32,000 nt of DNA from Candidatus Nitrospira inopinata. Its GTDB lineage: Bacteria > Nitrospirota > Nitrospiria > Nitrospirales > Nitrospiraceae. The position numbers were made by a program, and so were the translations under genes. The notes below the pieces were generated by a model that was given only the letters and a program-made list of their open reading frames with translations, did no database searches and had not been told where the DNA came from. Where the stretch lies: contig NZ_LN885086.1 in assembly GCF_001458695.1 (NCBI RefSeq), forward strand, positions 1,920,001 to 1,952,000. The letters are read 5' to 3'. Of the stretch, positions 986 through 26,579 are shown piece by piece (positions within the stretch are counted from its first letter, which is position 1; the number at the start of each line of letters is the position of its first letter).

Positions 986-1168
986 ACAATAACTCGGAAT
1001 CTAGGTAATAGTCCTATAAATCGCCGTCCGTCGCATTGCGACCACGGAAACGAATAAGCTATACTCCGCGCGTCCATCTCGCGCGGCGCGCGGATTGTTC
1101 TGTAGATTACGCGCGCGAAACCTTGTCAAGGCAAACATGAAAGGCGATCCGGGGAAGGCGGTCCATTG

Positions 1169-2599
1169 ATGACGGAGCCGGTTCAATTGGCGATGTTCGG
1201 CGTGACGGAGACGGATGCCCGGCACGTGCTGGATCGGCTCAACGTGCGAGACGTCGACTATGCCGATCTGTATTTTGAGTCGAGAGTCGCGGAGTCGGTG
1301 TCGATGGAAGAAGGCATCGTCAAACGCGCCGTGAAGAGCATCTCGCAGGGAGTCGGCGTCAGGGCCACCGCCGGCGAGAAAACGGGGTTTGCGTACTCCG
1401 ACGATTTGACGAAGAAGGACTTGGAACTCGCGGCGGATACCGCCAGATACATCGCCGACTCTCCCAAGGGAACTCGGATGGTCCCAGTTCCCATCCATCA
1501 GCGGCCCTCGCACGATTTGTATCCGGTCGAACGGACGAAGGCCGAAGTGGCGACGCCCGAACGGGTCGCCCTGCTGAACGAGATCGACGCGGAGGCCAGA
1601 CGATACGATCCTCGTATCAAAAACGTCATGGCGTCGTTCAACACGGAATACAAGGTGGTGGTGGTGGCGACGTCGGACGGCGCCCTGGTCGCGGACGTTC
1701 AGCCGCTGTCGCGTCTGCAAATCAGTTGTATCGCCGAGGAGGACGGCAATCGCCAGATCGGAAGTTTCGGCGGAGGCGGGCGCGTGGGATTTGAGTTTTA
1801 TCGGGACCGGAACCGTCATTTGGAATACGCGCGGGAAGCCGCGCGCGAGGCGATCGTCAATCTTTCCGCCGTCGAGGCGCCCGCCGGCGTGATGCCCGTC
1901 GTCTTGGCCGGGGGATGGCCCGGCATTTTATTGCACGAGGCGATCGGCCACGGTCTCGAGGCGGATTTCAATCGCAAGAAGACGTCGGCGTTCTCCAACT
2001 TGATCGGAAAGCGAGTGGCTTCCGAAGTCTGCACCATCGTGGACGACGGCACCCTGCCGTTTCGACGGGGATCGTTGAACATGGATGACGAGGGAACGCC
2101 GACCGGCCGTACGATCCTGATCGAAAAGGGCATTCTTCGCGGCTATCTGACCGACAAGCTCAATGCCCGGTTGATGGGGATCGCCTTGACGGGCAACGGG
2201 CGCCGAGAAAGTTATCAGAGTGTGGTGCTGCCTCGCATGACGAATACCTTTATGTTGGCGGGCGAATCCGACCCGCAGGATATCATCCGGTCCGTAAAAA
2301 GGGGACTCTATGCCGTGTCGTTCGGCGGCGGGCAGGTGGATATCACGAACGGCAAATTTGTGTTCTCGGCCAGCGAAGCGTATTTGATCGAAGACGGAAA
2401 GGTGACTCGGCCGGTCAAGGGGGCGACGTTGATCGGAAACGGCCCCGAGATCCTCAAAAAAGTGTCGATGGTGGGGCACGACTTGAAATTGGACAACGGT
2501 ATCGGCACCTGCGGAAAGGACGGCCAGTCGGTACCGGTCGGGGTCGGCCTTCCGACCATCAAGGTTGATGAGATCACGGTCGGCGGTACGCAACGGTGA
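1169..2599 (+). CDS. tldD: Metalloprotease TldD
   Basis: About 476 aa with the HEAIGHGLEADF zinc-binding motif and the C-terminal GxC(G)KDGQ region typical of TldD. ATG at 1169 (in-frame TTG at 1166). Followed by its usual partner pmbA. Confidence 0.93.
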   Translation: MTEPVQLAMFGVTETDARHVLDRLNVRDVDYADLYFESRVAESVSMEEGIVKRAVKSISQGVGVRATAGEKTGFAYSDDLTKKDLELAADTARYIADSPKGTRMVPVPIHQRPSHDLYPVERTKAEVATPERVALLNEIDAEARRYDPRIKNVMASFNTEYKVVVVATSDGALVADVQPLSRLQISCIAEEDGNRQIGSFGGGGRVGFEFYRDRNRHLEYAREAAREAIVNLSAVEAPAGVMPVVLAGGWPGILLHEAIGHGLEADFNRKKTSAFSNLIGKRVASEVCTIVDDGTLPFRRGSLNMDDEGTPTGRTILIEKGILRGYLTDKLNARLMGIALTGNGRRESYQSVVLPRMTNTFMLAGESDPQDIIRSVKRGLYAVSFGGGQVDITNGKFVFSASEAYLIEDGKVTRPVKGATLIGNGPEILKKVSMVGHDLKLDNGIGTCGKDGQSVPVGVGLPTIKVDEITVGGTQR

Positions 2600-2681: not shown

Positions 2682-4076
2682 ATGGAATTGCGTCCTGAAT
2701 TGCAATCGGGCCGGTCGGCGACCGAGAGCGACGGCGGTTACGCCCAGCTTGCGGCGGATATCCTAAGTCGCGCGAAGGCCGGCGGAGCCACGGAGGCCGA
2801 CGTCGTCGTGGCCGACGGCCAAACGTTGTCGGTGCAGGTGCGGGTCGGCGCCGTTGACCGGCTGACCAAGGCCAGGGAAAAGCGGTTGGGGTTGCGGGTG
2901 TTCGTCGGCAAGCGATCGGCGACGAGTTCGACCTCTGATTTTTCAAAAGAATCGCTCGAACGATTGGTCTCTGAAACCTGCACGCTCGCGAAAACGGTCG
3001 TCGAAGACCCGACGTCCGGTTTGCCGGAAGCGACCCAGATGGCGACAGACCGGCCGGATCTTGATCTCTACGACGGCACGATTCTGAGCACGGAGAACCA
3101 GATCGAGTGGGCCAAACGAGGCGAGGCGGCCGCCTTTGCCGCCGACGAACGAGTGACGAACTCGGAAGGGGCGGAGTTCGAATCGTCGTCGGGTCGAGTG
3201 GTGTTGGCGAACAGCCACGGGTTTATCGGATCGTACCACGGCTCCAGCTTTTCCTTGTCCGTGTCGCCGATCGCCAGCGATGCACGGACGGGTTCCATGC
3301 AGCGCGGTGTGTGGTATGAAGTGCAACGAAAGTTCGCGCGGCTGGCCTCCGCCGAGTCGATCGGGCGGGAAGCGGCCAGACGGGCGGTTCGGCGATTGGG
3401 CGCGCGGCGGGTCGCGACCAAGCGCGTGCCGGTCGTGTTCGATCAAGAAACGGCCGGCAGTCTGTTGGCGAATCTGTGCAGCGCCGTCTCCGGCTACGGG
3501 TTGTACAAACGGGCGTCGTTTCTCTTGGATCAGCTTGGTCGGACGATCGCGTCCGATCTGATCACGGTGTACGACGACGGCCGCATGGTCGGCGGTCTCG
3601 GGTCCCGCCCCTTCGACGGGGAGGGAGTGGCGACCAGAAAAAACACGATCGTCGAGCGGGGCGTGCTGACCAGTTATCTGTTGGACACCTATTCGGGAAA
3701 GAAGATGGGGCTGCCCTCGACCGGCAATGCTTCCCGGAGCGTCGGCGAAAGCCCCTCGGTCGGGCCGACCAATTTTTACCTCGTGCCGGACACCAAGACG
3801 CCGGAGCAGATCATCGGATCGGTGAAGGAGGGACTCTACCTCACCGAACTGATCGGTTTCGGCATCAATATGGTGACGGGGGACTATTCACGAGGCGCCA
3901 GCGGGTTTTGGATTGAGAACGGGGAGTTGGCCTTCCCGGTCGAAGAAATCACCATCGCCGGCAATCTGAAACAGATGCTCAAAGACATCGAGATGGTCGG
4001 CAACGATCTCGTCTTTCGCGGACGAGTCGCCAGCCCGACGATCAAGATCGCCGAGATGATGGTGGCGGGCAATTAA
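2682..4076 (+). CDS. pmbA: Metalloprotease PmbA/TldE
   Basis: 464-aa ORF, a TldD paralog lacking the HExxxH motif, with typical PmbA blocks (GLYLTELIGFGINMVTGDYSRGASGFWIENGE). Sits directly downstream of tldD. Confidence 0.9.
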   Translation: MELRPELQSGRSATESDGGYAQLAADILSRAKAGGATEADVVVADGQTLSVQVRVGAVDRLTKAREKRLGLRVFVGKRSATSSTSDFSKESLERLVSETCTLAKTVVEDPTSGLPEATQMATDRPDLDLYDGTILSTENQIEWAKRGEAAAFAADERVTNSEGAEFESSSGRVVLANSHGFIGSYHGSSFSLSVSPIASDARTGSMQRGVWYEVQRKFARLASAESIGREAARRAVRRLGARRVATKRVPVVFDQETAGSLLANLCSAVSGYGLYKRASFLLDQLGRTIASDLITVYDDGRMVGGLGSRPFDGEGVATRKNTIVERGVLTSYLLDTYSGKKMGLPSTGNASRSVGESPSVGPTNFYLVPDTKTPEQIIGSVKEGLYLTELIGFGINMVTGDYSRGASGFWIENGELAFPVEEITIAGNLKQMLKDIEMVGNDLVFRGRVASPTIKIAEMMVAGN

Positions 4077-16496: not shown

Positions 16497-17408
16497 TCAA
16501 GATGGTTTTCGTGCGACGAGTCTGGCCGTGTACGCCGGGCGATCCGTCCGGCGCCCCTCGTCATAATGCAAGATCTGGAGGCCGGATGCAAGGTTGAGCA
16601 GCTCGTTGGGGCCGAGACAAAACTCCCGTCTCTTTGGATGACGGTAGTGAACGTGGTTGTCGATCGTGAACGTTTCATAGACCAGCGCGCCGCCCGGCTT
16701 CAGCGCTTCGAGGAGGAGGGGGAACAGGGGACGATGGAGATAAAAAAACACGGCGATCACGTCGTATCGTTCCTTGCCGAGACGGGGTTCATGGGGGGGA
16801 GGCTGTTCAAGATCGACGACCTGTATCGTGATTCCCTCGCACGCGCGTGATCGGGCGGAGGTGAGGAGCCGATCCAGGGCGGCGGCGTCCCGATCGACGG
16901 CGTGGACCTGATAGCCGTGGGACGCGAGAAACAGCGAGTGGCGACCGTTGCCGGCCGCCACGTCAAGCGCGGCGCCGGAGGGAAGTCGGTGCAGTTGTTC
17001 GACGAGCAGTCGGGCCGGAGCGTCATCGTCGTATCGTGTTTGATGGGTCTCTCTGGTCCGTTCAACGGAGACTCCGACGGAACCGATGACGAAATCGATC
17101 GGCGGATGGAGTTTCCGAAGCCACAGCTTGGCGTGCTCGATCGGAAATTCCTCGAACAACATCCTGAGGAGTCGCTCGGCCATGGTTTCTAACAGACGGC
17201 AGTCTTGCGCCGTTCCGACTTCCACGAGGCGTCGGGCGACGGCGGCATAGTCGATGGTGAGTTCAAGTTGGTCGCCGAGATCCGGCTGTTCGGAGGAGCG
17301 GTGCAGTTCCACGTCGATCGCGAGCGGTTGCGGACGGGCCCGTTCCTCGGCCGTCACGCCGCAGCGGCCGCGGAATTCCAACCGCTCGATCACGATGGAC
17401 TCCGGCAT
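16497..17408 (-). CDS. Fusion protein: dihydroneopterin aldolase (FolB) domain plus class I SAM-dependent methyltransferase domain
   Basis: Residues 1-~118 (IVIERLEFRGRCGVTAEERARPQPLAIDVEL...TIDYAAV...) look like FolB. Residues ~140-303 carry the SAM motif I LDVAAGNGRHSLFLASHGYQVHAVDRD and the post-I/II pattern (YDVIAVFFYLHR, LKPGGALVYETF), resembling TehB/TPMT-like methyltransferases. Confidence 0.75.
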   Translation of the reverse strand: MPESIVIERLEFRGRCGVTAEERARPQPLAIDVELHRSSEQPDLGDQLELTIDYAAVARRLVEVGTAQDCRLLETMAERLLRMLFEEFPIEHAKLWLRKLHPPIDFVIGSVGVSVERTRETHQTRYDDDAPARLLVEQLHRLPSGAALDVAAGNGRHSLFLASHGYQVHAVDRDAAALDRLLTSARSRACEGITIQVVDLEQPPPHEPRLGKERYDVIAVFFYLHRPLFPLLLEALKPGGALVYETFTIDNHVHYRHPKRREFCLGPNELLNLASGLQILHYDEGRRTDRPAYTARLVARKPS

Positions 17409-22057: not shown

Positions 22058-22669
22058 TCACGTTCGATGCCAGCGGGTCTCCAAGGCGCCGTCCCGGATT
22101 TCCACTTCCACGATGTGCGGGGTGATCGGCAATCCAGGCGGAGGAGCCGTCGCGTCTTGGAGCGGAGGCAGGATGTGCGACGGATCGTGAGAAAAATAAA
22201 TCCGTCGCACCGTTCCGGCCATTGCCTCGAGGGACGAGCCTCTTGACGCGGTCACCAGCTCGTGGCAGGCCCGCTCGTAGTCGAAGATCTCCCGCAAGTA
22301 TTCGATGTCCTTCCGAGGCAGCCATTCCCGCTCGACGCAACGTGCAAAGAGGTCGATTTCGCCGCGGAGCTGATAATCCGCGGGAGCCCCGGTCGACCAT
22401 AAGTCGTCGAGCAAGTCGCGCAACCAAGGTTCCAGGACGACGCAGGTCATGGGAAAGGCGTCGCAGATGGAGGTGAAGCGATTGGCCCTGGCCAGCGTGC
22501 AGTTGAGCGCCATTCCAGGCTGTCGGGAAATGCGCGTCAGCCTCGCGCGCTCACGATCGGTCAGCCCGTAGGGCGCCAGCGTGGACTCCCCATCGCGCTT
22601 GACCCGACTGGCCAAGCGTACGTCGAGTGTCATGTCTGTGAGGGCGCGTTGGAACTCAGCCAGCGACAC
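22058..22669 (-). CDS. MNIO partner protein (DUF2063/MbnC/TglI-like) candidate
   Basis: 203 aa with a GTG start 15 nt after the MNIO stop and AAGGAA upstream. The N-terminal MSLAEFQRAL... and ...RANRFTSICDAFPMTCVVLEPWL... resemble the DUF2063 N-terminal pattern as I remember it. Position immediately downstream of a DUF692 gene is the canonical partner position. Confidence 0.55.
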   Translation of the reverse strand: MSLAEFQRALTDMTLDVRLASRVKRDGESTLAPYGLTDRERARLTRISRQPGMALNCTLARANRFTSICDAFPMTCVVLEPWLRDLLDDLWSTGAPADYQLRGEIDLFARCVEREWLPRKDIEYLREIFDYERACHELVTASRGSSLEAMAGTVRRIYFSHDPSHILPPLQDATAPPPGLPITPHIVEVEIRDGALETRWHRT

Positions 22670-22684
22670 GGATGATTCCTTGGT

Positions 22685-23581
22685 TCAGAAGATACCCGCC
22701 CGCTCGATCGCGCGGCTGGCGATATTCAACTGAGTCAGCACTCCTTGCCGATGCAGCAGCGGCCAACTGCCTTCATGAAACTCGAACGTCACGGCGCGCA
22801 AATTGGGGGATCGCGGGAGCACCCATTCGAGCAGCGGCCAGACCCCCGCATGCACCGGTCCGGCGTGCGAATCGGTATGGAGCCCCATCATCTCGTCGCC
22901 GCCGGCGATGTGAATCTCAATGACGCCGGAAAGGTCGAGTCGTCGAAGGTATTCGTGGGCGTCGCAACGACGGTTGCGGGTGTTCGCATAAAGATTGTGG
23001 AGATCCAGCAACATGCCGCATCCGGCCTCGGCCATGAGCGCATTGAAAAACTCCGCCTCGCTCATCTCCTCGTCGCCGTAATCGACGTACGCGACGGGAT
23101 TTTCAAGCAGGAATGGAACGCCCAACGTCCGCCGGGCCGAGCGGACGCGCGGAATCAGGAGGTCGAGCGCTTCGACATCGTACGGCATCGCCAAAGCCAA
23201 CGCGGCATGCGTGCCGTGGCCGGAACCGACGCGCGTAAACGACAGGTGTTCGCTCACCCACGCGCAGTTCAGCCGCTCGCACCAGCGGGCCAGTTGGTCG
23301 AGATACTCGGTATCGAAGAAGTCGGCGCTGAGAATCGAGAGTCCGATTGCGTGCAATGCGATCGGCAACCGATGCGCGGCCTGTTCAACTGGCGCAAGCG
23401 GAACCGGCAGCTCTTCAAAACGCCGCCGGTGTCTGGGACCGTGATCGATCCAGGCTCGATCCGGAATGACTGCCAGATGATTTAATTGCTCGAGATCCGC
23501 GCGAACGAAATCCGCAAGCGCGGGGTTGAAGAGCAGCCCGACGCCGGGGAGGCCGACGCCGGGCTCGGTGACCCGCGTCAC
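22685..23581 (-). CDS. DUF692 / MNIO-family (multinuclear non-heme iron oxidative) enzyme, MbnB/TglH/ChrH/BufB-like
   Basis: 298 aa with a TIM-barrel DUF692 pattern: GVGLLFNP, LHAIGLSI, WVSEHLSF, PFLLENPVAYV, LLDLHNLYANTRN, VIEIHIAGG, HTDSHAGPV. GTG start lies 12 nt after the upstream stop, with AGGGA as the SD. Confidence 0.85.
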   Translation of the reverse strand: MTRVTEPGVGLPGVGLLFNPALADFVRADLEQLNHLAVIPDRAWIDHGPRHRRRFEELPVPLAPVEQAAHRLPIALHAIGLSILSADFFDTEYLDQLARWCERLNCAWVSEHLSFTRVGSGHGTHAALALAMPYDVEALDLLIPRVRSARRTLGVPFLLENPVAYVDYGDEEMSEAEFFNALMAEAGCGMLLDLHNLYANTRNRRCDAHEYLRRLDLSGVIEIHIAGGDEMMGLHTDSHAGPVHAGVWPLLEWVLPRSPNLRAVTFEFHEGSWPLLHRQGVLTQLNIASRAIERAGIF

Positions 23582-23593
23582 GACTCGATTCCC

Positions 23594-23842
23594 TTACAGA
23601 TTCACCTGAATGACGTCGTCGAAGCGATGGCGGATCCAGATGTCGAAGCCGGAGATGCAGGCGGGGCAGGCCTTGAGACCGACTTTCTTCAAGATTTCGG
23701 CGTTGCGCGTGATGTTCTTGGTGAGCGCGGTGGAAACGTCGGCCAATGTGCCGCCTCCTACGAGGGCGACTTCGACCGCCGGGCGGCCGGAAGCGCCCGT
23801 CTTGCTCAGGTGAAACGTGGCCGTCCCTTTTCGATTGGTCAT
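23594..23842 (-). CDS. Candidate RiPP precursor peptide (82 aa) with a C-terminal CPAC motif
   Basis: ATG at 23842 is preceded by AAGGAG at 9-nt spacing. It lies immediately upstream of, and co-directional with, the MNIO gene. The only two Cys (C59, C62; codons at 23666-23668 and 23657-23659) form KACPACISG. No hydrophobic signal peptide. Confidence 0.6.
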   Translation of the reverse strand: MTNRKGTATFHLSKTGASGRPAVEVALVGGGTLADVSTALTKNITRNAEILKKVGLKACPACISGFDIWIRHRFDDVIQVNL

Positions 23843-23916
23843 GGTGTGTGACTCCTTTCGTTCGGTGAGGGGATTGTGAATGAGCGGCGCGTGAAGCGCC
23901 GAATGCCGCGGAGGCA

Positions 23917-23945
23917 GGTATATCGTGAGCCGGTGAGCATGTCAA
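23917..23945 (-). promoter_or_regulatory. Candidate sigma70-type promoter of the peptide-MNIO-partner operon (TTGACA-17 nt-TATACC)
   Basis: Minus strand reads TTGACA (23945-23940), an exact 17-nt spacer, then TATACC (23922-23917). The predicted ~65-nt leader contains a 6-bp GC hairpin (23885-23901, CGGCGC/GCGCCG). Confidence 0.5.
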
Positions 23946-24114: not shown

Positions 24115-25671
24115 TTACAGAATCCGCCAGGTGCGGCCGTCGTTTTGGATGAGACGGTCGGCTTCCACCGGCCCCCAGGTGCCGGCCTGGTATTCGGGCA
24201 ACCAGCGGAGCCCCTGTTTTTCCCAGGCATCGAGAATCTGAGTGATCCAAGCCCAGGAGGCTTCGACCGCGTCGCGTCGCATGAAACGGGAGGCGTCTCC
24301 CGCCATCACGTCGAGCAGGAGCCGCTCATAGGCTTCAGGCGAAGGACGCCCGAAGACCTCCGTGTATTTGAAGTTCATCTCGACCGGGTGGGTTTGCGCC
24401 CTGGTGCCCGGTACACGGGAGACGATGCGGAGCGAGAGTCCTTCCTCCGGCTGAATCCTCAAGGTCAGCACGTTCGGCGCCTGCGGTTTCCGAGGGTCCG
24501 CGTTGAACAGAATTTGCGGGATTTCTTTGAAGTACACGGCCACCTCGCTGGCGCGGAGCGGCAGGGCTTTGCCCGTCCGCAAATAAAAGGGCACGCCGGA
24601 CCACCGCCAGTTTTCGACGAAACATTTGACGGCCACATAGGTTTCGGTGACGGAATCGGGTTTGACGCCCTTTTCGCGTCGATAACCGGGCACCGGTTTC
24701 CCGTGCACCGTTCCTTCCGTGTATTGCGCTCGCACCGTGACCTTGTCCACGTCTTGAGAGGTAATGGGTTTCAGGCAGCGGAGGACTTCCATCTTGGCGT
24801 TTCGGACCACGTCCGGGTCCAGAGAATAGGGCGGTTCCATCGCGACCAGGCAGAGCAATTGGAGCAGGTGATTCTGCACCATGTCCCGCAAGGCGCCAGC
24901 CTCTTCGTAGTAAGAGGCCCTGGTTCCGACTCCCTCCGCCTCGCTGACGGTGATTTGGACGTGGTCGATGTACTTGCGGTTCCAAATCGGCTCGAAAATA
25001 CTGTTGGCGAAACGCACGACCATCAGATTCTGAACCGTCTCTTTGCCCAAGTAATGATCGATGCGGAAAATTTGCGATTCATCGAAGACCCGGCCCGTGG
25101 CGGCGTTGATCGCCTGTGCCGACGCCAAGTCCCGCCCCACCGGTTTTTCCACGATGATTCTGGCATAGGGGGAGCGGGCGCCGGGAGCCCCGGCGAGACC
25201 GCTGGCGGCCAGTCCCTCGCAAACGGGAGTGAACGAACTGGGAGGGATACTTAGATAAAAAATACGGTTCCCCGGCAGTTGAAACGACCGTTCAAGTTCT
25301 TCGACGCGGGCCTTCAGCCCCGTATAGGTTCGGGGATCGTCGTTTTCGCCGGCCAGATAGAACAGACGTTGCGAAAAGATGCTCCATGAGTCTTCGATCA
25401 AGGCCCGCCGGGAATGCGTGACGACGCCGTCCCGCATGATGGACCGAAACTCCTCGTCGCTCATCGGCGTGCGGCCCAATCCCAGCACGATGTAGTTGGA
25501 CGGCAACAGCCCGTCCAACAGCAGGTTGTACAGGGCCGGGACCAGCCGGCGTCGGGCCAAATCGCCGGAGCCGCCGAAGATGACAATGGTGCAGGGATCA
25601 ACGGGCGTGATGGTTTCCGCGGGCGGACCGTTGTCGAGGCGATGGGCTTGGGGCTCCATGGAGACCTGCAT
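24115..25671 (-). CDS. zwf: Glucose-6-phosphate 1-dehydrogenase
   Basis: IFGGSGDLARRRL (NADP-binding) and RIDHYLGKE (active site) motifs, about 518 aa. Start ATG at 25671 (or 25659) lies just after the gnd stop. The 664-aa track ORF over-extends across gnd. Confidence 0.93.
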   Translation of the reverse strand: MQVSMEPQAHRLDNGPPAETITPVDPCTIVIFGGSGDLARRRLVPALYNLLLDGLLPSNYIVLGLGRTPMSDEEFRSIMRDGVVTHSRRALIEDSWSIFSQRLFYLAGENDDPRTYTGLKARVEELERSFQLPGNRIFYLSIPPSSFTPVCEGLAASGLAGAPGARSPYARIIVEKPVGRDLASAQAINAATGRVFDESQIFRIDHYLGKETVQNLMVVRFANSIFEPIWNRKYIDHVQITVSEAEGVGTRASYYEEAGALRDMVQNHLLQLLCLVAMEPPYSLDPDVVRNAKMEVLRCLKPITSQDVDKVTVRAQYTEGTVHGKPVPGYRREKGVKPDSVTETYVAVKCFVENWRWSGVPFYLRTGKALPLRASEVAVYFKEIPQILFNADPRKPQAPNVLTLRIQPEEGLSLRIVSRVPGTRAQTHPVEMNFKYTEVFGRPSPEAYERLLLDVMAGDASRFMRRDAVEASWAWITQILDAWEKQGLRWLPEYQAGTWGPVEADRLIQNDGRTWRIL

Positions 25672-25685
25672 TGCTCCGGCGAGGA

Positions 25686-26579
25686 CTATTGTTTGACGGC
25701 GTGGCCGCCGAAGGCGTTCCGCAACGCGGCCAACAGTTTTTCCGCGAACGAGTCGTCCTGTCGCGATCGAAACCGAGTAAAGAGGGCCGCCGTAAGTGTG
25801 GGCACCGGCACGTCTTTGTCGATCGCGTCGGCGATCATCCAGCGGCCTTCTCCGGAATCCTGCACGTATCCTTTTAATTTTTCCAGTTTCTGATCTTCTT
25901 TGAGCGCGCCTGCCGCCAATTCGAGCAGCCAGGAACGGACGACGCTCCCGTGCATCCAGAGGTCCGCGATGCGGGCCAGATCGAGTTGATACTCGCTCTT
26001 GGACATCAGCTCGAAGCCCTCCGCGTATCCCTGCATCAGGCTGTATTCGATGCCGTTGTGGACCATCTTGACGTAATGACCGGCACCCACGGCACCGACG
26101 TGGGCCCACCCCTGCTCAGGCGCCAAGGTGGTGAAGATCGGAGCCAGCCGGCTCACGGCCGCTTGTTCGCCTCCGATCATCAGGCAATAGCCGACCTTCA
26201 AGCCCCAGATGCCTCCGCTCGTGCCGACGTCCACGTAGTGAATGCCCCGTTTCTTGAGTTCGGAGGCCCGCCGCACGTCGTCATGAAAACGGGTATTACC
26301 CCCGTCGATGATCGTGTCGCCCGCTTGCAGCAACGAAGCGACCGTGTGAACGGTTTCTTCCGTGGGGGCGCCGGACGGCACCATGATCCAGACCGTGCGC
26401 GGGACACTCAACTTGCCCACCAAATCGGCGATGGAGGAGGAGCCGACGCACCCCACACCTTCCGCCTGGGTAACGAGGTCGGGCGAACGGTCGAACACGA
26501 CGACGCGATGGTCGTCGCGCCGCAGGCGAGTCACCATATTCATGCCCATTTTGCCGAGGCCGATGAATCCCAACTCCAT
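25686..26579 (-). CDS. gnd: 6-phosphogluconate dehydrogenase (decarboxylating), short ~300-aa form
   Basis: MELGFIGLGKMGMNMV Rossmann N-terminus, GGNTRF and VHNGIEY motifs. ATG at 26579 with AAGGAG upstream. Operonic with zwf. Confidence 0.9.
   Translation of the reverse strand: MELGFIGLGKMGMNMVTRLRRDDHRVVVFDRSPDLVTQAEGVGCVGSSSIADLVGKLSVPRTVWIMVPSGAPTEETVHTVASLLQAGDTIIDGGNTRFHDDVRRASELKKRGIHYVDVGTSGGIWGLKVGYCLMIGGEQAAVSRLAPIFTTLAPEQGWAHVGAVGAGHYVKMVHNGIEYSLMQGYAEGFELMSKSEYQLDLARIADLWMHGSVVRSWLLELAAGALKEDQKLEKLKGYVQDSGEGRWMIADAIDKDVPVPTLTAALFTRFRSRQDDSFAEKLLAALRNAFGGHAVKQ

Follow-up and report, generated by a model that had tools for sequence, protein, structure and literature searches.

Few families of peptide-modifying enzymes are as large or as chemically surprising as the MNIO enzymes (DUF692; the MbnB/TglH/ChrH superfamily), and new chemistry has so far come from every subfamily that was newly characterised. 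According to the literature, they act mostly on Cys residues and require a partner protein; proteins above 30 kDa can also be MNIO substrates (PMC13056109). In the ChrHI system, the substrate ChrA carries a CPxCGxG motif (PMC10214503, PMC13056109). The second Cys of its CPAC tetrad is essential and starts the chemistry, and a thioether ring takes its thiol from the first (PMC10214503). The partner in that system, ChrI, is a DUF1772 membrane protein. In the TglHI system (3-thiaglutamate/pearlin), the target in TglA is a C-terminal Cys that comes from a PEARL ligase, and TglI is the substrate-binding subunit. The systems that make bufferins, oxazolins and captophorins (BufBC, HvfBC and FonBC; PMC11626156, PMC13097082) combine a DUF2063 (PME-type 1) partner with substrates that have Sec signal peptides and usually multiple Cys followed by a small residue; some of these substrates are long or protein-sized. 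FonBC, which forms thiooxazoles, has a strong preference for Cys targets that are followed by a small residue (PMC13097082). Copper is bound by most of the characterised Cys-derived MNIO products (PMC11626156, PMC13097082).

Two further groups, both from Antoine et al. (2025, Microb Genom, PMC12452194), bear on the locus studied here. In that paper, "PME-type 2" partners go with signal-less precursors, and adjamnio-7, of all published groups the one nearest by description, is a set of signal-less putative precursors with a CxxC that adjoin MNIO SSN cluster 7, a small cluster. The representative given there for adjamnio-7 is WP_078758616 of Novilysobacter spongiicola, for which an AlphaFold model is shown, and the group is described by bioinformatics only.

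The DNA analysed here, which we call the window, is a stretch of 32,000 nucleotides from Candidatus Nitrospira inopinata (NZ_LN885086.1, positions 1,920,001 to 1,952,000). The host is a cultured and environmentally important complete ammonia oxidiser, and its metabolism relies on copper and iron enzymes. An earlier reading of the letters of the window (the original prediction) had proposed an ORF with a single CPAC site as an unusually long candidate precursor for MNIO-related, Cys-directed chemistry. Our literature search returned no paper that joins MNIO with Nitrospira, and none that cites WP_062485005, the product of this ORF.

The small gene and its product

The features used below, all on the minus strand, are:

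22058..22669, minus strand: partner protein, TglI-like (PME-type 2) by AF2 and Foldseek, 203 aa
22685..23581, minus strand: MNIO (DUF692, MbnB/TglH/ChrH superfamily), 298 aa; PF05114, E 1.9e-56
23594..23842, minus strand: gene of the small CxxC protein, a candidate MNIO substrate; from the ORF list, the homologue family, dN/dS 0.13 and GC3 0.80
23642..23668, minus strand: codons C59-P-A-C62-I-S64-G65-F-D67, which form the conserved core, where modification is proposed to take place; from the invariant columns and the conservation profile
23852..23858, minus strand: Shine-Dalgarno-like AAAGGAG, read from the sequence, 9 nt 5' of the ATG

The ORF list gives an ATG start and a product of 82 aa for 23594..23842 on the minus strand, and the translation is the very peptide that the original prediction had quoted for these positions, then given no strand; the plus-strand translation is a different and unrelated sequence. 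The protein is WP_062485005.1 (CUQ66980.1; A0A0S4KX29), annotated as a hypothetical protein, and neither Pfam nor NCBIfam models matched it. There are only two Cys, C59 and C62, in a CPAC tetrad at residues 59-62, and 20 residues follow C62. The residue numbering stands as predicted. A run of three Gly occupies G29-G30-G31. The description of the protein as signal-less also held, in that a hydropathy scan, run without a dedicated signal-peptide predictor, detected no N-terminal hydrophobic region. The top 12-residue window of the scan covers residues 25-36 (VALVGGGTLADV), with a mean of 1.53.

The gene has the signature of coding DNA, with a GC3 of 0.80 as against a GC2 of 0.47, and its dN/dS relative to the nearest homologue is 0.13. 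We conclude that this is a real gene, on which purifying selection acts. Two ORFs overlap it in other frames or on the other strand, at 23486..23851 (plus) and 23415..23945 (minus), and we take both to be, most probably, shadow ORFs that the high GC3 of the gene has given rise to. A scan for promoter and terminator consensus sequences around the cassette gave nothing informative.

The MNIO and its partner

On the minus strand of the window the order is small protein, MNIO, partner. The MNIO starts 12 nt 3' of the stop codon of the small gene, and the Pfam domain PF05114 spans its residues 15-261. Against the models of the named MNIO subfamilies it scored 167.6 bits for BufB (cut-off 310), 131.7 for HvfB (360), 104 for ApyH (400), 44 for ChrH (600; NF050165) and 31 for MbnB (325), in all of them far short of the curated threshold. 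Its nearest solved relatives are a DUF692 protein, 3BWW, with 84 bits, and TglH, to which it aligns over residues 13-268 with 71 bits. In 12 cassette MNIOs, residues H77, H112, E160, D193, N196, H224, D237, H239 and E267 do not vary. We take their spacing to be that of the canonical multi-iron ligands, an assignment based on the ligands of MbnB and on motif alignment to 3BWW and TglH. By its sequence, the MNIO of the window appears to keep the full expected set of metal ligands.

The partner ORF starts 15 nt 3' of the MNIO. Its product gave no Pfam match (DUF2063 included), no NCBIfam match and no match in a profile search of PDB sequences, and its likeness to TglI was revealed by fold comparison only. 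AF2 modelled it with a pLDDT of 90 and a pTM of 0.81, as a helical N-domain followed by a small beta-alpha-beta-beta C-domain, and the sole significant Foldseek matches were the TglI chains 8hi7_A and 8hci_A (probability 1.00, TM 0.60). The modelled structure thus assigns the fold of TglI to the partner and, in the terms used by Antoine et al. (2025, PMC12452194), makes it a "PME-type 2" protein. Its family comprises 109 homologue clusters and adds Burkholderiaceae and Caldimonas to the organisms concerned.

The genes around the cassette are unrelated or housekeeping. They encode glucose-6-phosphate dehydrogenase, 6-phosphogluconate dehydrogenase, a beta-eliminating lyase family protein, HD-domain and HEAT-repeat proteins, a GDSL lipase and an MFS transporter, and the GC content of the cassette is the same as that of its surroundings. 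Among the 24 large ORFs annotated in the window we found no C39 peptidase or ABC exporter, in agreement with the original prediction; the sole peptidases among them are a TldD/PmbA pair about 20 kb off. A PEARL ligase was seen neither among these 24 ORFs nor in the genes called at related loci.

Synteny of the cassette

Related loci were collected in a genome scan that used alignment A1, the broad alignment A2 being too diverse, and the scan is biased to close relatives because A1 was used. At every evaluable locus, in several phyla, a gene of the 82-aa family lies immediately 5' of an MNIO of one clade, and this is followed by the partner or by a fused partner. The collinear order peptide, MNIO, partner was found at 13 loci (L001-L004, L006-L010, L012, L017, L020 and L021). 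At three more (L014, L018 and L019) the MNIO is directly 3' of the peptide, and the contigs end inside or just after the MNIO. At L015 and L016 the peptide is followed by a 497-aa protein that is apparently a fusion of MNIO and partner, a reading taken from its length and from the MNIO match of its N-terminal part, the C-terminal half having no BLAST match to the partner. The cassette MNIOs are 44-60% identical to that of the window, and the fused form 30%. The flanking genes are unrelated and different at each locus. No protease or exporter was seen among the called genes flanking the cassette at any locus, and no cassette held another conserved candidate substrate. Because it is always found directly 5' of the MNIO and its partner, the 82-aa protein is most likely the MNIO's own substrate. 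The homologue family and its synteny mark the ORF as a conserved, MNIO-linked candidate substrate and give genomic support to the main idea of the original prediction, an MNIO substrate with Cys-directed chemistry.

Two loci have damaged enzyme genes. At L005, in a Nitrospira MAG, a large deletion has collapsed the MNIO and the partner, so that residue ~83 of the MNIO is joined to the tail of the partner; the peptide of this locus has a C59R replacement, an altered C-terminus and a dN/dS of 0.28, as against 0.13. This locus is a natural experiment, in which the peptide decays together with the enzyme genes. At L009 the MNIO is without residues ~81-214. A hit in a Gammaproteobacteria MAG (L011) was set aside as spurious, being a 20-residue match in a stop-containing frame with no MNIO.

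Conservation, predicted fold and variants of the small protein

Close homologues of the 82-aa protein form 35 clusters. The family has 63 representatives at 50% clustering, in a search of 1.84 billion 50%-clusters, and a broad profile reached about 116 clusters at 90% identity. Nearly all members are metagenomic, with lengths of 71-106 aa, and the named or binned sources include Nitrospira, Acidobacteriota (Bryobacterales, Paludibaculum), a Brocadiaceae bin and a Limnocylindrales MAG. The original prediction had allowed for a known small-protein family, of which neither Pfam, NCBIfam nor the PDB held a relative: Pfam at E<=1 on 53 aligned members gave scattered single matches, none of them consistent, and a PDB profile search with the family gave no sequence relative. 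DUF7385 was rejected as the family, since it matches the tandem variants (see below) only, weakly (21 bits, below its cut-off), and is absent in the other members. The automatic JGI name "F420-reducing hydrogenase gamma subunit", which refers to an Fe-S subunit, is backed by no Pfam or NCBIfam model. A giant Calx-beta protein of 4993 aa (P0082) that matched profile positions 15-55 was treated as a case of compositional or strand-pattern similarity.

In the broad alignment A2, the sole invariant residues are C62, S64 and G65; C59 and P21 are conserved in more than 90% of the sequences, and M1 in 97% at the aligned start. The motif C-x(1-2)-S-G is present in 171 of 173 members, and 157 of these 171 have exactly two Cys. 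The residue equivalent to C59 is Cys in 165 members (about 96%) and His in three; two members have a C-x-C spacing, and one degenerate-looking member has Trp. C62 never varies, the His variants included. The residue that follows it is variable and bulky (Ile in 81, Arg in 37, Lys in 21). The family consensus reads C-x-x-C-x-S-G-x-D, with a median distance of 25 residues from the Cys motif to the C-terminus. The Cys residues are thus the most conserved feature among homologues, the point that the original prediction had put to an alignment. It had also envisaged a conserved island with a variable leader. The island is there, with a conservation maximum of 0.68 at residues 55-67; the remainder, at 0.43-0.52, carries strand-like alternating hydrophobics along the whole length of the protein (A8/F10/L12, V23/V25/L27, I68/I70, V77/V80/L82), and the expectation is half borne out. 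The GGG run, once suggested as a double-Gly leader boundary, is not conserved (G29-G31 score 0.27-0.48 and are replaced in most homologues), and we discard that suggestion. Nor is H72 conserved in distant members of the family.

The best AF2 model of the 82-aa protein had a pLDDT of 73, and the other four about 54. In the best model, residues 6-13 and 22-29 are predicted as strands, 33-45 and 48-53 as helices and 67-72 as a further strand, and the CPAC lies in the connection from helix to strand. A Foldseek search of the PDB with this model gave no match with E<0.1. The prediction is thus moderately confident only, and the folded domain is a proposal.

Some family members differ in architecture. 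P0058 and P0069 have N-terminal twin-arginine motifs (GRRGFLK and GRREFIK) and a hydrophobic stretch ahead of the entire domain, and P0069 has a weak match to the Rieske Tat-signal model. Tat exports folded proteins, and MNIOs are cytoplasmic. With the signal placed ahead of the entire domain, this suggests that in these relatives both modification and folding of the whole domain come before its export. P0084, P0089 and P0092 are tandem two-domain versions with CPACCSGFD in each unit, and they are paired with the fused enzyme of 497 aa.

P0075, P0090 and P0098 have His in place of the first Cys. We considered whether such variants could be second, paralogous copies and found no support for this, the His variant at L017 being the only copy 5' of its MNIO. 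At L019 the His variant is likewise directly 5' of the MNIO; there the contig starts 57 nt before the gene, and an upstream paralogue is possible. Since His variants are found directly 5' of the MNIO, at L017 as the sole copy, the first Cys appears to be dispensable for retention of the cassette.

Comparison with described MNIO systems

Judged by its sequences, the cassette appears to be an MNIO cassette in the generic sense, with a PF05114 enzyme next to the small gene, the ligand residues, and a TglI-type partner after the MNIO; by the features that define them, it falls outside the ChrHI, bufferin/captophorin and TglHI systems.

The relation to ChrHI that had been predicted survives as a resemblance. 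With the chryseobasin-type systems ChrHI and DybH the family shares the CPAC tetrad and, at the third position past its second Cys, a Gly (CPACGMG in theirs, CPACISG in ours); the second Cys is the indispensable one, and modification of large protein substrates is known from the ChrHI subfamily (MelA1; PMC13056109). Membership is another matter. Our MNIO, at 44 bits, is far below the ChrH cut-off and has no helical bundle at its C-terminus; the partner, in contrast to ChrI, is soluble and TglI-like. The motif has no Gly at +1 (Ile, Arg or Lys instead) and has an invariant Ser at +2, and it is internal, 20 residues from the end. To TglHI, the cassette is linked by the fold of the partner (PDB 8HI7, 8HCI), by the alignment of the MNIO to TglH and by a substrate that is signal-less; it differs in that the target in TglA is C-terminal and ours would be an internal Cys, with no PEARL ligase seen. 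By sequence, the nearest enzymes are those of the bufferin, oxazolin and captophorin systems (the BufB/HvfB group, which forms thiooxazoles), with which the cassette also has Cys targets in common and, in some of their substrates, a protein-like size. Our MNIO is, however, well under their equivalog cut-offs, neither a DUF2063 partner nor a Sec signal peptide was found in the cassette, and the single CxxC contrasts with their multiple Cys. Because a bulky and variable residue follows C62, the nearest enzymes by sequence are no safe guide to the chemistry. As for the double-glycine peptides exported by C39-ABC transporters, the cassette has neither a conserved GG/GA motif nor a C39 peptidase-ABC transporter.

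All the descriptive features given for adjamnio-7 in the passage of PMC12452194 that describes it (signal-less, CxxC, MNIO-adjacent) agree with those of the 82-aa family, and the family may, by description, be adjamnio-7; the comparison was by description only. No protein recognisable by name as from Novilysobacter was among the family matches, and WP_062485005 is absent from the text of the supplement of PMC12452194. If the family is adjamnio-7, what is added here is its anatomy, the type of its partner, its variants and a testable site, C62. In either case, the 82-aa proteins may form an uncharacterised family of MNIO substrates with a protein-like, signal-less architecture, possibly flagged bioinformatically before.

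Discussion

In our view the 82-aa protein is probably the dedicated substrate of the adjacent MNIO and its TglI-like partner, modified at C62 and kept whole, and as part of the same model the three genes would probably form an autonomous cassette. The partner would dock the small protein, probably by way of the N-terminal beta-hairpin and helix region of the latter, and the loop G55-L-K-A-C-P-A-C-I-S-G-F-D67 would be presented to the multi-iron site. An O2-dependent oxidation may then start at the side chain of C62, as it does at the second Cys of the CPAC of ChrA and at the Cys of MbnA, TglA and the bufferins. C59 could be a second participant, whether as an intramolecular nucleophile that closes a small thioether ring, as another residue that is modified, or as a co-ligand in the final site; this third role would account for its replacement by His. 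The proposed hierarchy, C62 and then C59, parallels that of ChrA, although as a resemblance only. The product would be left uncleaved, and the whole protein of about 80 aa, with its Cys-derived group, would be the functional entity, cytoplasmic in Nitrospira and Tat-exported in some relatives. The most plausible role of such a product is that of a metal-binding or redox-active small protein. This is a speculation by analogy, made plausible by the binding of copper by most Cys-derived MNIO products and by the ability of His to replace C59.

The view that the product is kept whole drew on the conservation outside the core, the AF2 elements, the Tat and tandem variants, and the cassette flanks, in whose called genes no protease or exporter was seen. 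The original prediction had offered a small folded protein modified in place as its alternative, and whole-length conservation, the Tat and tandem variants and the beta/alpha elements of the AF2 model make this a better fit than a leader and core. Counted on the other side of the model were the exchange of Cys for His at position 59 and the conserved D67, which would be compatible, too, with an ordinary metal site free of covalent modification; a protease or exporter that could be encoded elsewhere in the genome; and a folded domain that comes from a moderately confident AF2 model with no fold match.

We weighed three other accounts of the small protein. That the CPAC ORF is a spurious ORF of GC-rich DNA, with its CPAC by chance, is a natural suspicion where long false ORFs are frequent and several overlap the locus in question; it is already refuted by the conservation data and has practically no weight left, given homologues in 116 clusters across phyla with a similar length and an aligned start, the dN/dS and GC3 of the gene, its strong ribosome-binding site and the fixed synteny. 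A reading with more substance makes the protein an accessory small metalloprotein, perhaps a dimer, in which the CxxC, D67 and possibly H72 bind Fe or Zn. To the MNIO it would be an iron donor, the reductant of the mixed-valent cofactor or a structural third subunit, with the real substrate encoded elsewhere. The His found at the first Cys in three members is a typical ligand swap, conservation over the whole length is that of a folded domain, most members have exactly two Cys, and the JGI name, with no model behind it, cites an Fe-S subunit. We nevertheless consider this account unlikely. No cassette contains another conserved candidate substrate and the flanks differ everywhere; two Cys alone are insufficient for a mononuclear site, and H72 is lost in distant members. 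Moreover, the invariant S64-G65 resembles a recognition or reaction motif more than a ligand set. No MNIO system is known to use such an accessory, and the rule for substrates is a small Cys-containing protein encoded upstream (PMC12452194).

About as improbable, and if anything slightly more so, is a RiPP precursor of leader-core type, with a leader from residue 1 to ~54 that is bound by the partner, a core made up of the C-terminal ~25 residues with the CPAC, and protease and export proteins encoded elsewhere. The gene does occupy the canonical position of a precursor, 5' of the MNIO, conservation is highest in the C-terminal third, and leaders are bound by TglI-type partners in the systems that PMC12452194 reviews. 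The window also holds the TldD/PmbA pair, and general peptidases of this kind trim leaders in some RiPP systems. Yet there is no conserved cleavage motif, the GGG run at 29-31 being unconserved, and conservation with a strand-like period extends to the N-terminal part as well as to the extreme C-terminus. The called genes that flank the cassette, at any locus, include no protease or transporter. The Tat signals, which belong to a pathway for proteins in the folded state, stand ahead of the domain as a whole; the tandem variants, too, repeat the whole unit.

Under the preferred reading, in which the 82-aa protein is modified at C62 and stays whole, the substrate is unusual, in that it is apparently a whole small protein rather than a leader and core, and signal-less, in contrast to the bufferin-type majority. 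Since the cassette is minimal, with three genes and no tailoring, protease or export genes, it should be easy to reconstitute. Should the product prove to bind metal or to be a redox protein, MNIO biology would extend from secreted metallophores to intracellular protein cofactors. It is possible, though we hold this much more tentatively, that the cassette does not make a natural-product peptide and instead equips a small folded protein, of a previously unrecognised fold, with a cofactor or metal-binding group that is protein-derived and Cys-based, at the invariant C-x-S-G loop. Such a protein would act inside the cell or, in some lineages, after Tat export, perhaps in copper or redox homeostasis in comammox Nitrospira, and the chemistry would be unlike the known MNIO reactions, which are the formation of oxazolone-thioamide and of thiooxazole, the excision of a beta-carbon, and the rearrangement carried out by ChrH.

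Apparently damaged and fused versions of the cassette

Apparently damaged or rearranged versions of the cassette, which in the window consists of the genes for the 82-aa CxxC protein, the MNIO enzyme and a TglI-like partner, were found at four related loci (coordinates local to each).

L005, 5001-5600: decayed cassette copy, Nitrospira sp. MAG DGJ02_3_Bin65
L009, 5218-5793: MNIO lacking an internal stretch
L015, 5001-6891, and L016, 482-2372: two-domain variant of the candidate substrate, with a 497-aa protein

In L005, the partner tail is fused onto the MNIO at about residue 83, and the peptide gene carries C59R, in the CPAC site, together with an altered C-terminus; its dN/dS is 0.28, as against 0.13 in an intact relative. 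The MNIO of L009 is missing residues ~81-214, which could reflect a deletion or an assembly artefact, and the peptide and partner at this locus look intact. The MAG is labeled Bifidobacteriaceae, which seems an unlikely host. In L015 and L016, the substrate variant is 139 aa long, has two CxxCCSGFD units, and its gene overlaps the start of that for the 497-aa protein, which looks like a fusion of the MNIO and its partner.

Tat-motif members, a doubtful match and a doubtful name

Two members of the small-protein family carry N-terminal twin-arginine motifs (GRRGFLK in P0058, GRREFIK in P0069) that precede the whole domain.

L014, 2628-3041, and L018, 2019-2408: Tat-motif members P0058 and P0069

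The Rieske Tat-signal Pfam model matched P0069 weakly, under the model cut-off. Seven matches to positions 15-55 of the family profile were found in P0082, a giant metagenomic Calx-beta repeat protein of 4993 aa, and probably represent strand-pattern similarity rather than homology. The JGI/IMG name of the 82-aa protein itself (23594-23842, minus strand), 'coenzyme F420-reducing hydrogenase gamma subunit', is supported by no Pfam or NCBIfam model, and was rejected.

Other genes in the window

1166-2599, plus strand: TldD/PmbA-family metallopeptidase (annotation)
2682-4076, plus strand: second TldD/PmbA-family metallopeptidase, adjoining the first (annotation)
16497-17408, minus strand: FolB and TehB-like ORF, 303 aa (domain annotation)
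24115-26109, minus strand: G6PD ORF, 664 aa as listed (ORF listing and Pfam)

RiPP leaders are trimmed by TldD/PmbA-type peptidases in some systems. About 20 kb separates the TldD/PmbA pair of the window from the cassette; in the other loci, no such peptidase genes were linked to the cassette. In the 303-aa ORF, a dihydroneopterin aldolase (FolB) domain and a TehB-like SAM methyltransferase domain appear to be fused. The first Pfam domain of the G6PD ORF begins at residue 176. Translation of this gene probably starts much further downstream than the first GTG, in which case the upstream intergenic region would be larger.
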